This document shows, piece after piece, positions 58,906 to 64,000 of a stretch of DNA of 64,000 nt (position 1 is its first letter; every line of letters begins with the position of its first letter). Source of the DNA: Akkermansia sp. (GTDB taxonomy: Bacteria; Verrucomicrobiota; Verrucomicrobiia; Verrucomicrobiales; Akkermansiaceae); assembly GCA_030523775.1 (NCBI GenBank), contig JAUNHW010000012.1, positions 6,715 to 70,714 of the forward strand, in the 5' to 3' direction. Below the pieces are notes generated by a model. That model was not told where the DNA came from, searched no databases, and saw only the letters and a program-made list of their open reading frames with translations. The position numbers and the translations under genes were made by a program.

Positions 58906-59988
58906 TTACTTCTTGAGGAAGGGTTTCTTGATGATGACGGCGGGGACGGGCTTGTTGCGGACGATGACGTTCACCTCCGTGCCGATCTTGCCGAGGGCGG
59001 TGGGAACGTATGCCATGGCAATGCCCTTGCCGAGGGTGGGGGAAAGCACGCCGCTGCAGAGCTCGCCCAGGTGCGTGCCGTCCGGCAGCTGCACCTCGTA
59101 GCCGTGGCGGGGCGGGGCGCCCTTGCCCGTGTACTCGATGGCCACCAGCGCGGTGGGGCGGCCCTCCGCCTTCTGCTGGCGCAGCACCTCCACGCCGATG
59201 AAGTCCTTCGTGAGGTCGCAGCACCAGGAGAGTCCGGCCTCCAGCGGGGTCTTCTCCGGGGAGAGGTCGCTGCCGTTCAGGGAGTAGCACATCTCCAGGC
59301 GCAGGCTGTCGCGCGCGCCCAGGCCGCAGGGCTTGGCGCCGCTGGCAATGACCTTCTCCAGCCACTTCACGCCCTCTGCCGCCGGGCAGAAGAACTCGAA
59401 GCCGTTCTCACCGGTGTACCCGGTGCGGCAGACGTAGAGCTCGTCGCCGTCGCAGCTGAACTTGAGGATGCCGTTGCGCTCCGGCAGCACAATGCCCGGG
59501 CACATGCCCGCGAAAACTTTTTCACAGTTGGGCCCCTGCACGGCCAGGCCCACGAAATCCGCGCTCTTGTTGACGAGCGAGACGCCCTCCGGCTTGTGCG
59601 CGGTGAGCCAGGCGTAGTCCTCGTCAATCATGGAGGCGTTCACCACAATGAAGTAGTTGTCCTCGCCCATGCGGTAGATGATGAGGTCGTCGATGACGCC
59701 GCCGCGCTCGTTGAGCATCATGGAGTACTGGCCCACGCCGTCCGTGAGCTTGTGCAGGTTGTTGGTGAACATGCCGTTCAACCACTCCGTGGTGCCCGGG
59801 CCGTAGGCCAGGAACTGCCCCATGTGGGAGATGTCGAACACGCCGCAATCGTTGCGAACGGCGTTGTGCTCATCAATGATTCCCGTGTACTGCACGGGCA
59901 TGTTCCAACCGGCAAACGGCACCATCTTGGCACCCAGAGCCACATGCTTTTCGCACAAAGGCGTGCATTTAATCTGTTCTTCGCTCAT
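58906..59988 (-). CDS. gcvT: Aminomethyltransferase (T protein)
   Basis: FAGWNMPVQY, FDISHMG, RTGYTGENGFE, GLGARDSLRLE. Confidence 0.96.
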   Translation of the reverse strand: MSEEQIKCTPLCEKHVALGAKMVPFAGWNMPVQYTGIIDEHNAVRNDCGVFDISHMGQFLAYGPGTTEWLNGMFTNNLHKLTDGVGQYSMMLNERGGVIDDLIIYRMGEDNYFIVVNASMIDEDYAWLTAHKPEGVSLVNKSADFVGLAVQGPNCEKVFAGMCPGIVLPERNGILKFSCDGDELYVCRTGYTGENGFEFFCPAAEGVKWLEKVIASGAKPCGLGARDSLRLEMCYSLNGSDLSPEKTPLEAGLSWCCDLTKDFIGVEVLRQQKAEGRPTALVAIEYTGKGAPPRHGYEVQLPDGTHLGELCSGVLSPTLGKGIAMAYVPTALGKIGTEVNVIVRNKPVPAVIIKKPFLKK

Positions 59989-59998
59989 GTTACCATCC

Positions 59999-60027
59999 AC
60001 TATAAGCCCCCCGCCCCGCCGAGTCAA
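59999..60027 (-). promoter_or_regulatory. Promoter of gcvTHP
   Basis: TTGACT-17-TATAGT, 10 nt before ATG 59988. Confidence 0.8.
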
Positions 60028-60265
60028 GCAATATCCCGCACCTTTCCGAGAAAATTCCCATTCCCCCAACACCCGGAGATAGATGAACGCGAGACGCCAT
60101 CCACCCCGCAGTGCGGGATTCGGCGGCGAGACGTGCTTCCAGCCGTCGGGCGTATTGTAAATCCCTTGTCCTGCGGAAGTTGAAAAGAGGGATGCGCCTA
60201 GCCGGAAAACCGAGGAAACCGCAAAAAAACGCTTGACAACTTGGCCATTTGTGTTTTAATGGCGG

Positions 60266-60342
60266 TGTCACGGCACGCTAACGCCTCTGCTCTTCCTTAA
60301 CCGGAGGGGATACGCGCAACAAAGCGTGCCTTTCCTTTTTTC
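60266..60342 (+). ncRNA. Candidate small structured RNA
   Basis: Upstream TTGACA-16-TTTAAT; closing stem GGCACGCT/AGCGTGCC, inner hairpin, T-rich tail. Confidence 0.4.
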
Positions 60343-60647
60343 ATGGACAATCCTTTCCTGGATGGGGTTGCCATCTCACTGGCAGGACCATCCACTGTGG
60401 AAATAGGGTTCACAAAGGCGTGGACTCACGCCCCCCGCCCGCCGAGTCAAGCAATATCCCCGCTAGTTTCAAACAAAATTCGGAGCTGCGCCAGATTTTG
60501 CGGGTGGTCGAAAAAACGCCCGGTGAGGTGCAGGCGTGGACGCAATCCACCCCGCGGAGCGGGGTTACCGTGGAAGGTATGCGGGGGGGGTGCCCCATGG
60601 GTTAAAGGGAGACGTCATCCGCCCCGCCGCATGGCGGCGGGACTCCG

Positions 60648-61505
60648 TTAGTGCATGTCCGCATAACTCTGCACCATCGTCACGCGCCTTGCGTTCCCAT
60701 CGCCAGACGCCCCTCCCATTCCAGTTCCCAACCTCACACGGTCCCCCGTTGGAGCAGTTGACAGCGCCTCCAGCGGCAAGAGGGAAATGAAACTTCGCTG
60801 ATAGCGCTTCGCCCCCGCCGGCATCCTGCGTGTGGCGGCGGGATCTATGAGGCCGTGTGCGCGGCAGATTTCGGAGAAGCGGCGGGAAACGTGGCAGGTG
60901 TGTATATCATGCAATTCTTGCAGAATGTACTCGTCCTCCGGCTTGGCGATATCGTCCAGCAGGCGGATGAACTCCCGGGAGAGGAAGTGCACGATATATC
61001 CCCCGCGCGAGTCGTTGTTCTTGATCACCAGCATGTTCGCCTTACGGTTGAGCTGTGAGCGGCGCAGGTTCTGGCAGGTTGTTATGCCAAGCCCCCCGCA
61101 GTATACCCGCAAGCCCACCAGCGCGCGGTACACGGGCGGGAACTCCGTGAGCATGCGCTGCACCTCCGGCAGGGTGAAGGCGCGCCCTTCCTCCGTGGCC
61201 CGCGTGTGCGCAGCCGGCAGCGGCACCCCGCGCATGGGCGACTCGTGCAGCAGGCCGCTCTTCACCGCTGCCTGGAACGCTGCATTCAGGTACGCGCGGT
61301 ATGAACGCAGCGTTCGCGGGGCCATACTCTGCGCGCGTTCCTCAAAGAAGCGTTCGCAGTGCCCGGGCTTCAGGGAGTCCAGCGGCCCGTTCGCCAGCTC
61401 TCCCAGATACTCCAGGAAGCGGGCGTACACCTGGCAGCGCTTCTCCAGCGTACGCGGCGCATCCTTGGGCGGGCGGAACGCTTCCAGATACGCGCGGATG
61501 CTCAT
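60648..61505 (-). CDS. Tyrosine recombinase-like protein with degenerate catalytic motifs
   Basis: Core-binding region (APRTLRSYRAYLNAAFQAAVKSGLLHESP), AFTLPEV, YCGGLGI, RSFISLL. Confidence 0.75.
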   Translation of the reverse strand: MSIRAYLEAFRPPKDAPRTLEKRCQVYARFLEYLGELANGPLDSLKPGHCERFFEERAQSMAPRTLRSYRAYLNAAFQAAVKSGLLHESPMRGVPLPAAHTRATEEGRAFTLPEVQRMLTEFPPVYRALVGLRVYCGGLGITTCQNLRRSQLNRKANMLVIKNNDSRGGYIVHFLSREFIRLLDDIAKPEDEYILQELHDIHTCHVSRRFSEICRAHGLIDPAATRRMPAGAKRYQRSFISLLPLEALSTAPTGDRVRLGTGMGGASGDGNARRVTMVQSYADMH

Positions 61506-61545
61506 CTCTCCCCCGCCGCTGCCTGCCACGATGAAATGCATGGAA

Positions 61546-61573
61546 TTTACGATTGACGATTGACGATTTACAA
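61546..61573. repeat. Heptamer tandem repeat, 4 units
   Basis: TTTACGA TTGACGA TTGACGA TTTACAA. Confidence 0.8.
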
Positions 61574-61585
61574 TTGGGAGAGTTC

Positions 61586-61623
61586 GGCTCCGCCTTCGCT
61601 AAAGCTTCGGCGTGACAAGGCGC
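61586..61623 (-). repeat. REP-like imperfect hairpin repeat
   Basis: Reverse complement matches 1509-1546 at 37/38. Confidence 0.85.
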
Positions 61624-61638
61624 GCCGGGATTTGGGGA

Positions 61639-61668
61639 ATTAGGATTAGAATTAGGATTTGGATTTGG
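61639..61668. repeat. Hexamer tandem repeat, 5 units
   Basis: ATTAGG ATTAGA ATTAGG ATTTGG ATTTGG. Confidence 0.8.
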
Positions 61669-61702
61669 AAAAAGCCCCGCGCGGTGCGCGTCCGCGCGGG
61701 GC
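61669..61702 (-). terminator. Terminator of the second PEP-CTERM gene
   Basis: GCCCCGCGCGG 11-bp stem; T5 tail on the minus strand. Confidence 0.8.
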
Positions 61703-61760
61703 CTGTTAATCTGTTCTCCTGCGGCAACGCCGCCTAACTTATGATTTGTACATTGCTTGC

Positions 61761-61809
61761 CTCGGCGTAGCCCGCAGGGCGTAGACGGGTACTTTGTACT
61801 TTGTACATC
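61761..61809 (+). repeat. REP-like unit followed by heptamer repeats
   Basis: CTCGGCGTAGC-CCGCAGG-GCGTAGACGG, then GTACTTT GTACTTT GTACATC. Confidence 0.75.
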
Positions 61810-64000
61810 TCACTTGCGGCGTCTGCGCGCTGCCAGCGCGCAGAGCGCCAGCAAGCTCAGGGTGCTTGTGGTGGGTTCGGGGACCTGCACAATGTAGACG
61901 GTGCCCACATTGCTGCCGTTGCCGCCCGGGTTCACGCCGCTGTAGAACACGTAGTAGTCCTTGCCTTCCGTCTTGAAGAGGTCGTTGTTGAAGACCTCGT
62001 TGGCCTTGACCCACGTCTCGGAAGCGAAGGTGATTTCGGAGTACTGCTGCGTGCCGATGAAGAAACTCTCCACATCGTAGTACAGGTCGTACGCCTCCAT
62101 GAATCCGAGTCCGGCCACATTTTCCATATCTTTGGTGGAGAGGGACATGCCCGGGTTCAGGGTCACGGAGCAGCCCATGTTCAGGCCGCCCGTGCCGCCG
62201 TAGGCGGAGACATCCAGCGTGGAGCCGGCGTCCATCACCAGGTTGGCGTTCAGCTTGGCGTCCGCACCGCTGGCGGTGAGGGTGCCCTTGACGGTCAGCG
62301 CGCCCACGTTCTCTTCCGCAGCCGTGGCGTTGGTGTACACGCCCAGGTTGCTGTTGTTGATGGTGACATCCTGCGCGCTCACGCTGGCGGCCTGGGCGAT
62401 GTTCATGATGTTGAGCGTACCGGCCTCCACGTCGATGGAGCCGTCGAAGCCGTCCACACCGCCGAAGCTCTGGGTGCCGGAGCCGCTGTGCACCACATCC
62501 AGGTTGGCGCCCAGCTTGCCGTTGTAGGTGTAGTTGTCGTCACCCGTGATTTCGAGCACGCGGTTCTTGTCGGCCTCCGTGCCGCGCACGTTCACGGTCT
62601 TGCCGGTGGTGGCGTCCTTAAGGCCCTTCACCTGGGCGCGGGCGGTGTCCACGGTCACGGTGGCGTAGGTGCCGCCGCTCATTGTCGACTGCAGCACGGC
62701 ATTGGCGGCCACGTACTCGTCCTTGATGACCAGGTTCATGCCGCCGCCGGTCTTGACGTAGCTGGAGCCGGTGCCGTACTGGATGGTGCCGGTGTAGGCG
62801 GGCGCCGAGGCCGCGGAGGTTTCATCGCCGAGGATGAAGTTGACCACCTTGCCCGTACCTGCATTACCGCCGGTGTAGCAGGTGGTCACCTGCAGGGTGT
62901 GGCCCGTGCCGCCGCCGGAGAGGGACTTCACCACAATGTCCGTGGTGTAGTTCACCGAGCCGGATGTAAGCATATAGGTGATGCCGGACGCGCCGTCGAT
63001 ATCCAGATGGCCCAGATTGAACACCTGGTCGTCCTCATAGCCAGCGAGGCGGATATCACCGTTGCTGCCCTTGAGCTTGAGCGTGCCCTGGACATCCAAG
63101 TCGCCCACCAGGGAGTAGTAACTGTTACGGTTGGTGGAAGTCAGCGTCAGCGTGGCGTTTTCACCCACCACCACGGCGGAACCCGCATTGCCCGTCAAGC
63201 GGCGCACGGAAGCATCCTTGTCGAACGTGGCCGTAACGTGGTTGTTGAGCGTCACATCAGAGGAGGCTCCATTGGAAAGCGTGCCCATGGTGTAGGCGGT
63301 GCCGCCCTCCCGGCCGTTCAAGGTCAGGGCCTTGTTGGTCAGGTTGACCGTGCCGGCGTTGTCCATGCCGTTAGCCAGCGTCAGGTTGGCGCCCAGCTCC
63401 AGCGTGCCGACGGCCGCCACGTCCACATGGGCGTTGCCCAGGGCGGTTCCCGTGGTGGTCTTGAGCGTGCCTCCCTGCACGTCAACCGTGCCTTCCATGG
63501 TGTTGTCGGCGCTCAGGGTGAGCACCTTGCCGGTGGTGCCGGTGACGGTCAGCGTCTGGCCGGCGCCCACGCCCTCCACAGAGGCAACGGAGGCGTTCTC
63601 CGACACCTGGACGGTGGCGGAGGCATCCTCCGTGAGCACCAGGTGGGCGAGCGCGGCATCAGCCTTGTTCAGGTTGATGGCGGTGGCGTCAGCCAGTTTC
63701 ACGGTGGTCAGATTCTCGCCTGCGAAGTCAAACGCAGTGGTGTACTTTTCCGTGGTCCCATCCGCCCGCACGTGGAACGTGGTCATGTCCTTCTGGCCAT
63801 TGCCGGTGAAGGTACCGGCCTGGGCATCGAATGTACCGCCGACACCCTTGTAGGTGATGGTGGCGGCGGAGCTGTCAACCACGCCCACACGGTTCTCGGT
63901 GAAGACGCGCACGGTGGAGGAATTGTAGTAGAAGCCGTTGCCATCATGTTCGCCTTCGTCGTAGCCTTCGTCTTCGGTGAGGGCGGTCAGGGCGTCCAGG
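61810..64000 (-). CDS. PEP-CTERM surface protein with passenger-like repeats (5' end outside the window)
   Basis: Open frame to the window edge; LTLSADNTMEGTVDVQGGTL; C-terminal VPEPTTSTLSLLALCALAARRRRK. Confidence 0.9.
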   Translation of the reverse strand, partial: LDALTALTEDEGYDEGEHDGNGFYYNSSTVRVFTENRVGVVDSSAATITYKGVGGTFDAQAGTFTGNGQKDMTTFHVRADGTTEKYTTAFDFAGENLTTVKLADATAINLNKADAALAHLVLTEDASATVQVSENASVASVEGVGAGQTLTVTGTTGKVLTLSADNTMEGTVDVQGGTLKTTTGTALGNAHVDVAAVGTLELGANLTLANGMDNAGTVNLTNKALTLNGREGGTAYTMGTLSNGASSDVTLNNHVTATFDKDASVRRLTGNAGSAVVVGENATLTLTSTNRNSYYSLVGDLDVQGTLKLKGSNGDIRLAGYEDDQVFNLGHLDIDGASGITYMLTSGSVNYTTDIVVKSLSGGGTGHTLQVTTCYTGGNAGTGKVVNFILGDETSAASAPAYTGTIQYGTGSSYVKTGGGMNLVIKDEYVAANAVLQSTMSGGTYATVTVDTARAQVKGLKDATTGKTVNVRGTEADKNRVLEITGDDNYTYNGKLGANLDVVHSGSGTQSFGGVDGFDGSIDVEAGTLNIMNIAQAASVSAQDVTINNSNLGVYTNATAAEENVGALTVKGTLTASGADAKLNANLVMDAGSTLDVSAYGGTGGLNMGCSVTLNPGMSLSTKDMENVAGLGFMEAYDLYYDVESFFIGTQQYSEITFASETWVKANEVFNNDLFKTEGKDYYVFYSGVNPGGNGSNVGTVYIVQVPEPTTSTLSLLALCALAARRRRK

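Follow-up and report, generated by a model that had tools for sequence, protein, structure and literature searches.

We found that a minus-strand gene in a 64,000-nucleotide stretch of Akkermansia DNA encodes a derivative of the tyrosine recombinases (YRs), hereafter the dead integrase. The whole stretch, called the window, corresponds to C16:6715-70714 in the assembly of genome G000, an Akkermansia-type genome of 2.33 Mb with 64% G+C in 37 contigs. As judged from alignments and a predicted structure, the dead integrase has lost both its catalytic residues and the end of its catalytic domain, and the gene has been kept under purifying selection since then. By analogy with MrpR/YopR, SroF and TnsF, it is probably an exapted, non-catalytic DNA-binding protein.

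The dead integrase was matched by PHROG_1 (integrase) over residues 18-227 (E=1.6e-15), while no match to Pfam PF00589 was obtained at E<=1 and the NCBIfam and PADLOC scans of the protein gave no match. Pfam SAM_5, SAM_1 and SAM_2 matched the core-binding region weakly (E 0.027-0.18), and the sole match in a sequence search of the PDB was the integrase N-terminal domain 2kkp, in agreement with the integrase-like core-binding region that the initial annotation had seen here. Two intact integrases of the same genome matched the dead integrase with 29% and 26% identity (E=4.9e-21). When the family profile was searched against 1.8 billion representatives, a single cluster of dead members was followed by integrases of ~380-410 amino acids (aa) at E ~1e-22, and residues ~80-340 of these aligned with residues 14-256 of the dead integrase. 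On this alignment the gene is therefore the internal two thirds of a ~400-aa arm-type tyrosine integrase of a phage or integrative and conjugative element (ICE). The N-terminal arm-binding domain (~70-80 aa) is absent: residue 14 aligns with about residue 80 of the intact relatives, and only a 12-aa Gly-rich peptide precedes the alignable region.

The AlphaFold2 model, made from an alignment in which intact integrases predominated, had a mean predicted local distance difference test score (pLDDT) of 85.6 and was confident over residues 11-260. It contained the core-binding helices H15-21, H29-51, H59-69 and H75-94 (pLDDT >=89), and the elements of the catalytic-domain remnant spanned H124-260. 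Foldseek matched this model with probability 1.0 to Tn1549 Int, lambda Int, XerA and XerH (TMq up to 0.56), and the non-catalytic YR-fold repressors SroF (9rd5), YopR (8bj6) and MrpR (8a0a) appeared at ranks 25-34 (E 6e-4 to 1.5e-3, TMq 0.23-0.44). By sequence descent and by predicted fold, the dead integrase is a member of the tyrosine-recombinase superfamily. Descent from another recombinase family of this genome was rejected: seven paralogous genes encode tyrosine recombinases of ~340-385 aa with split and weak PF00589 matches, and none showed similarity to the dead integrase at E<0.01. These seven paralogues may be an insertion sequence-like or invertase family.

The catalytic positions were judged by alignment of 37 intact relatives with the seven members of the dead family. 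The initial annotation had quoted four strings, YCGGLGI, SFISLL, LGT and VQSY, and all are present in the open reading frame (ORF). It had taken the first as an Arg-I box with Gly in place of Arg, and the second as an HxxR box in which His became Ile and Arg became Leu. The results showed that GGLGI stands opposite GGxR[LI], with Arg-I being R in 37/37 intact and G in 7/7 dead proteins, and that SFISLL stands opposite SFHSxR, with His-II being H in 37/37 intact and L/I in 7/7 dead proteins; both boxes were thus read correctly. Arg-II is R in all 37 intact integrases and L/P/R/Q across the dead family, with Leu in the window copy. HDIH (residues 211-214) was rejected as the HxxR box, since the intact integrases of the same genome place SFISLL opposite SFHSIR.

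The other two strings, which had been taken as the His/Trp-III box (LGT) and a surviving Tyr (VQSY), turned out to be something else. Family members stop 5-21 residues past the HxxR box, whereas intact integrases go on for ~50-60 residues with GH...Y; by this comparison the His-III/Tyr segment of the catalytic domain is deleted, not mutated. A strain 98% identical to the window (locus L037) has TGA after '...RLGT' where the window has GGA (60720-60722), with a 1-nt indel further on, and residues 274-297, VQSY included, are therefore read as stop-loss read-through. The G+C content of the tail by codon position is 0.60/0.55/0.66 versus 0.66/0.46/0.82 in the core, and residues 265-297 are predicted to be disordered (pLDDT <50). 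As read-through with neither a codon-position signature nor predicted structure, the tail was rejected as a degenerate His-III/Tyr region. KRYQRS was likewise rejected as the site of the catalytic Tyr, because this Tyr is Asn in P0006, P0007 and L002 and its position precedes the HxxR box. From the catalytic set (Arg-I, Lys, His-II, Arg-II, His/Trp-III and Tyr), the sole residue class left is a Lys (K174, in 6/7 members) conserved in the β-hairpin region. The alignment did not place canonical catalytic residues elsewhere, so the catalytic loss stands, and as judged from these positions the dead integrase cannot cut DNA.

The ORF is uninterrupted on the minus strand at 60648..61541 and runs from the ATG at 61541 to the TAA at 60648-60650, giving 297 codons from the first ATG (Table 1). 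The initial annotation had described an uninterrupted ORF of 285 aa; the frame is real and uninterrupted, but the start used was the internal Met13 (ATG 61503-61505). Because the invariant N-terminal motif AGSGGxE sits 5' of Met13, the true start is more likely the ATG at 61541 or the GTG at 61529, the latter aligning with the Met of MAGSGG in homologues. The core of the protein is basic, with an isoelectric point (pI) of 9.5.

Table 1. Features of the dead integrase gene and its surroundings, with related elements elsewhere in genome G000 (positions are those of the window unless a contig is named)
Feature	Position	Strand	Remarks
Conserved coding part of the dead integrase	60723..61541	minus	273 codons to the stop position of the 98%-identical strain; homologues 258-273 aa
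Read-through tail, residues 274-297 and TAA	60648..60722	minus	non-conserved, predicted disordered, holds VQSY
Core-binding (SAM-like) domain, residues 14-105	61227..61502	minus	four helices; Pfam, 2kkp, AlphaFold
Catalytic-domain remnant, residues 120-260	60762..61184	minus	front of the domain, about two thirds of it, as far as the HxxR helix
GGC codon (Gly152) at the Arg-I place	61086..61088	minus	alignment with 37 intact relatives
Degenerate HxxR box, Ile252-Ser-Leu-Leu255	60777..60788	minus	alignment with 37 intact relatives
Region preceding the dead integrase, presumed promoter	61542..61668	minus	AT-rich 6-7-nt tandem repeats
Intrinsic-terminator hairpin (GGCCCCGCGCGG...CCGCGCGGGGC, then T run)	61669..61707	minus	between the giant gene and the dead integrase
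Giant PEP-CTERM/autotransporter-repeat gene	61810..64000	minus	last 729 codons of 3,829 aa; runs to the end of contig C16
REP-like sites (including those listed)	window 61750-61765; C19:12345; C11:18238; C20:17829; C10:13394/13442	minus (window site)	
CAGTATTnGGAATRCTG pairs	C20:57874/58032; C20:51246/51404; C13:34388/34541; C28:35591/35745; C28:37316/37468; C24:12935/13101		
CAGTATTnGGAATRCTG at contig ends	C5, C15, C16, C17, C19		
Tyrosine recombinase paralogues of ~340-385 aa	C13:154252; C20:5332; C8:26571; C37:537; C14:8073; C35:83526; C25:76442		weak, split PF00589 matches

The ratio of nonsynonymous to synonymous substitution rates (dN/dS) was 0.21-0.54 in seven pairs of dead integrase genes, with bootstrap upper bounds of 0.37-0.73. 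For the catalytic-domain remnant the ratio was 0.09-0.41 in 6/7 pairs and 0.69 in the other one, and it was below that of the core-binding domain in 5/7 pairs. Five different full-length gene sequences held zero stops or frameshifts at dS up to ~1, and the seven different proteins, with identity down to 60%, were separated by a single indel, which was short and in-frame. Differences were in excess at the third codon position (e.g., 41/35/80 at positions 1/2/3), and the core carried a codon signature with GC3 of 0.82 versus GC2 of 0.46. These results indicate that the dead integrase, including its catalytic remnant, has evolved under purifying selection since inactivation. The retention that the initial annotation had proposed from an intact ORF with several catalytic losses is in line with this, and neutral decay among close homologues was looked for and not found.

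In the tree, the dead family formed one clade (support 100/100) with a stem of 2.5 substitutions/site and short crown branches, and it grouped with Akkermansia-type integrases. Since the members have common losses and form one clade on a long stem, the inactivation is by this phylogeny a single old event that preceded the diversification of the family and was followed by constraint. Between the same species, gcvT gave an omega of 0.085 and a dS of 0.19-0.21, and the dS of the dead-integrase copies (0.6-1.0) was three to five times as high. Simple orthology with species divergence was rejected, because the between-species dS of 0.6-0.7 exceeds that of gcvT threefold and the copies occupy different places in the genomes; on the same grounds, the copies are judged to be older paralogous lineages or to have been moved by recombination. 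In a sample of 150 genomes from the taxonomic family to which the genus belongs, no other genus was positive for the dead integrase.

A PEP-CTERM surface gene had been placed directly upstream of the dead integrase, and the PF07589 match of its giant product (23 bits versus a cut-off of 20.7) agrees with this; the product is a β-strand-repeat surface protein. Downstream in the window lie gcvT, gcvH, and gcvP. All copies with readable upstream DNA (the window, L002, L005, L007, L008, L037, L038, and L039) sit 170-290 bp downstream of a giant PATR/SASA/PEP-CTERM gene, and the complete giant upstream genes encode 2,941-5,030 aa. The 3' neighbours vary and include gcvT (with or without an Abi_2 gene between), aconitase, aspartate-semialdehyde dehydrogenase, and others. 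Because a terminator hairpin parts it from the giant gene, the dead integrase gene is probably its own transcription unit; a hairpin was found at the terminator position in every locus compared and was closely conserved in most. After the hairpin come AT-rich 6-7-nt tandem repeats, which extend to the start codon and precede every copy with differing units (AATCGTC, TAGTACN, CAAATYC, and CTAATC); in the window, AATCGTC occurs three times at ~61546-61575, and AAATCC/TAATYC units lie at ~61630-61668. The (CTAATC)n array, ~90 nt upstream of the start, is a length-variable microsatellite: with an identical 261-aa protein, it has ~25 units in L008 versus 3 in L009 (L010 was also compared).

The sequence CCGAGNCAAGCAATRT, present near both copies, was rejected as a binding site, being part of a genome-wide element resembling repetitive extragenic palindromes (REP-like; ...ACCCGTCT[AT]CGC-hairpin-GCTACGCCGAGGCAAGCAATGT...) with 7-nt repeats such as GTACAAA on its flanks. 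This element was found at 11 sites in G000 versus 0 in the control, often just past the stops of PEP-CTERM genes.

Comparison of L037 with the window (L037:1-2818 versus window 61541-64000) showed a match of ~98% that sets in 15 nt upstream of the start codon. In L037, the first codons (MLPIM) and the intergenic region ahead of them match the other paralogue type, L039, and the last 2.6 kb of its giant gene fails to align with the giant gene of the window. A recombination breakpoint lies on or close to the conserved GGCAGGCAGCGGCGG in the 5' end of the dead integrase gene. By this comparison, giant-gene ends have been swapped between near-identical strains. The giant genes at C16:79,9xx-80,056 and C19:1-130 are 93% identical in the 5' untranslated region and signal peptide (MKLRLPHKFQTALMAALASVS), ~50% identical in the central protein, and nearly identical in the last ~70 nt and the terminator region, which suggests gene conversion at both ends.

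At least two giant genes next to dead integrases carry the repeat of the Akkermansia invertible promoters (invertons). In G000, this repeat (ATTGGGAATGCTG) lies 91-104 nt upstream of the giant-gene ATG, exactly at the end of contig C16, and the motif is also located at the 5' end of the giant gene preceding the copy in G288. The motif CAGTATTnGGAATRCTG occurs in G000 as inverted pairs ~155-170 bp apart and at many contig ends, with 34 matches versus 0 in the control, and the assembly breaks before giant genes because of the invertible-promoter repeats there. Within window 59,900-62,000, no inverton inverted-repeat motif was found. On C20, a 230-bp segment 5' of two paralogous PEP-CTERM genes is 93% identical and inverted; this segment and the motif pairs fit the published Akkermansia invertible promoters. 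In A. muciniphila, PEP-CTERM genes are reported to be under the control of such invertons, the flipping of which is locus-specific and not explained by the repeat sequence alone, and as of that report the Akkermansia inverton invertase was unidentified (PMC11892184). The dead integrase failed as a candidate for this invertase, since it cannot be catalytic.

The duplicated blocks at 60006-60120 and 60430-60566 repeat each other in the same orientation, over 30 nt at 93% and 28 nt at 86%. Between their counterparts in L037 lies an intact gene for a 317-aa abortive-infection-like Abi_2 protein (PF07751, E=5e-43; L037:3954-5020), with which we compared the remnant region of the window (60233-60430, plus strand). 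The results showed that Abi_2 in G000 has suffered an 887-bp deletion at ~60348-60350, leaving the ATG (60343), the first 8 nt, and the last 59 nt. A TTGACA-16-TTTAAT promoter and a structured stretch of ~75 nt (60233-60342) sit where the Abi_2 promoter and 5' leader would be. The gcvT-proximal 30 nt hold a promoter-like site (TTGACT-17-TATAGT). As an explanation of the blocks, a glycine riboswitch or another known RNA in the stretch from gcvT to the dead integrase was rejected, since Rfam gave nothing credible. Synteny with two related species stops inside block 1, at 60037-60059 (L041 and L042); past the break, an XRE-HipA toxin pair is found in G219 and a DUF4143-type ATPase fragment in G226. 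The stretch just upstream of the gcvT promoter thus looks like a variable slot for defence or toxin-antitoxin cassettes. No link between the duplicated blocks and the dead integrase was found by sequence comparison, and the blocks are better explained as edges of the cassette slot than as operators of the dead recombinase.

If the dead integrase is an exapted DNA-binding protein, its two retained lobes would still clamp a specific DNA site, for which the basic pI speaks, and it would act as a non-cleaving factor, either a repressor or an architectural protein, a role comparable with those of MrpR/YopR and SroF in SPbeta-like phages and of TnsF in Tn6022. The most plausible target would be the locus of the dead integrase itself or that of the giant adhesin beside it. 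As the C-terminal exchange helices are missing, assembly of a canonical synaptic recombinase tetramer is unlikely.

Several observations weigh against this role. Constraint is looser than on the neighbouring gcvT (0.21-0.54 versus an omega of 0.085), the stop loss in the tail differs between near-identical strains, and the second copy in the genome (C19, L002, 60% identity) is without the otherwise invariant AGSGGxE N-terminus. The family is narrow, being present in 4/154 species genomes of the genus. Related giant genes in G197, G196, and G219 have ffh, a glutamine-synthetase-like gene or an ATPase gene as their immediate downstream neighbour and no dead integrase there; the association is therefore one-way, and giant genes as a class do not need the dead integrase. 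Inheritance of one ancestral arrangement can account for the synteny. No locus-specific binding site was found in the intergenic regions, whose conserved motifs are generic 3'-end modules present at other genes, and the fold suggested by AlphaFold may not be attained by a catalytic domain from which three or four helices are missing at the end.

Much of this would also fit a functionless relic, that is, the integrase of a prophage or integrative element, long since lost, that had its place at the 3' end of a giant adhesin gene, the integrase being truncated at both ends, slowly decaying, and surviving mainly through linkage and duplication together with the giant gene. The truncation of both ends and the loss of catalytic residues agree with such an origin, as do the stop loss between 98%-identical strains, the second copy without the conserved N-terminus, the presence in only four species while related giant genes manage without the gene, a dN/dS several times that of gcvT, and the fact that among the named-family libraries only the PHROG integrase family recognises the protein. 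We nevertheless consider a relic unlikely, since dN/dS is significantly below 1 in all seven pairs, dead catalytic remnant included, and since a dS of 0.6-1.0, three to five times the 0.19-0.21 of gcvT, has passed with no stop or frameshift and one short in-frame indel. The codon-position signature is strong, and a long stem leading to short crown branches is in keeping with change that gave way to constraint. That the protein is a recombination cofactor or decoy rather than a transcription factor, binding recombination sites without cutting and modulating an active recombinase, seems distinctly improbable. Its candidate sites would be the inverted repeats of the giant gene's promoter inverton or the core sites of the intact integrases in the same genome. 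The repeat ATTGGGAATGCTG upstream of the giant neighbour, the inverton motif that the orthologous giant gene of G288 carries at its 5' end, and the locus-specific flipping of the invertons that control PEP-CTERM genes in A. muciniphila (PMC11892184) are in its favour, together with the presence of intact relatives (26-29% identity) in the genome. However, the inverton lies ~11.5 kb away at the opposite end of the giant gene, and most inverton-controlled PEP-CTERM genes here have no such neighbour. The protein also descends from arm-type phage integrases and has no match to the seven-paralogue recombinases of ~340-385 aa, and it is without the C-terminal helices through which protomers normally contact each other in recombinase assemblies.

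A more specific proposal, to which we give very little weight, is that the dead recombinase acts at giant adhesin loci as a locus-specific 'lock' or decoy for DNA rearrangement that does not itself cleave. By binding recombination sites, either the inverton repeats of the 11.5-kb PEP-CTERM gene or shared sequences where paralogous giant loci recombine, it would bias which giant surface protein a cell displays. If true, a gut symbiont would be using a regulator derived from a recombinase in its phase or antigenic variation, and this would explain why the flipping of Akkermansia invertons is not governed by the repeat sequence alone. Hardly credible is a recombinase that is still active through unconventional residues or through a Tyr donated in trans by a partner. 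Flp-type recombinases assemble their active sites in trans, which provides a precedent, and K174 is conserved in 6/7 members in the β-hairpin region. Against this, every member has lost Arg-I, His-II and the His-III/Tyr segment, most have also lost Arg-II, and the Tyr candidates are not conserved: that of KRYQRS is N in three members, and VQSY lies in the read-through tail.

Retention as a non-cleaving DNA-binding protein is thus the role that we favour. DNA-binding roles of dead YR-fold proteins have been recognised only recently, for MrpR/YopR and SroF in phages and TnsF in transposons. The dead integrase is an independent, more severely truncated case of a recombinase-fold protein kept after catalytic loss, and its setting is new, namely the chromosome beside giant phase-variable adhesin genes of an Akkermansia lineage. 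As a DNA binder it would be an independent chromosomal case in a gut symbiont, more drastic since the tyrosine-bearing end is deleted, and tied to the largest phase-variable surface-protein genes of the high-GC Akkermansia lineage. If DNA binding holds true, the protein would offer a handle on how giant adhesin loci are controlled or kept apart, and it would be a case from nature that shows which portion of the recombinase fold is enough to recognise DNA. In annotation, an 'integrase-like' gene beside an Akkermansia PEP-CTERM gene is not necessarily the sign of a mobile element. The reach of these results is limited by the narrow distribution of the family and by a function proposed by analogy.

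The closest sequence relatives of the dead integrase are the arm-type phage/ICE integrases of Akkermansia (26-29% identity), for example the 401-aa protein at C12:37,5xx of G000 (L003). These intact integrases, and structurally Tn1549 Int and lambda Int, have the same core-binding domain and front of the catalytic domain. Unlike the dead integrase, intact arm-type integrases have an N-terminal arm-binding domain of ~80 aa, the full R-K-H-R-H-Y set, and the C-terminal helices. Animals have Crypton-derived host genes, which are domesticated eukaryotic tyrosine recombinases kept after loss of catalysis; the concept is the same, but they are eukaryotic, unrelated in sequence, and found in other domain contexts.

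In Tn6022-like Tn7 transposons, TnsF is an inactivated YR that serves as a target selector (PMC10293859). It is likewise a tyrosine-recombinase derivative without the catalytic pocket, reused for DNA recognition (PMC10293859), but it has N-terminal zinc fingers, tandem core-binding-like domains, TnsABC partners, and comM as target, none of which is found in the dead integrase or its neighbours. Neither a zinc-finger domain nor a TnsABC neighbourhood was found, the neighbours being giant PEP-CTERM genes and housekeeping or defence genes. MrpR has been shown experimentally to have lost recombinase function and to act as a DNA-binding repressor (PMC10516654). MrpR/YopR, the master repressor of B. 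subtilis prophage SPbeta (PDB 8A0A and 8BJ6), and SroF, the related phi3T repressor (PDB 9RD5), likewise have a recombinase fold with most catalytic residues replaced. The catalytic domain of MrpR is full-length, with Tyr and Lys retained, whereas the dead integrase is without the last three or four helices and the Tyr, and MrpR is a phage lysis-lysogeny regulator, whereas the dead integrase gene is chromosomal and lies beside a giant surface-protein gene. Because comparison of the dead integrase with MrpR/SroF revealed no homology beyond the superfamily, with global TM-scores of 0.23-0.44, its inactivation is judged to be independent of theirs. By analogy with MrpR, the dead integrase may bind DNA in a sequence-specific manner and act as a repressor, for which its basic pI and the retained DNA-facing lobes speak.

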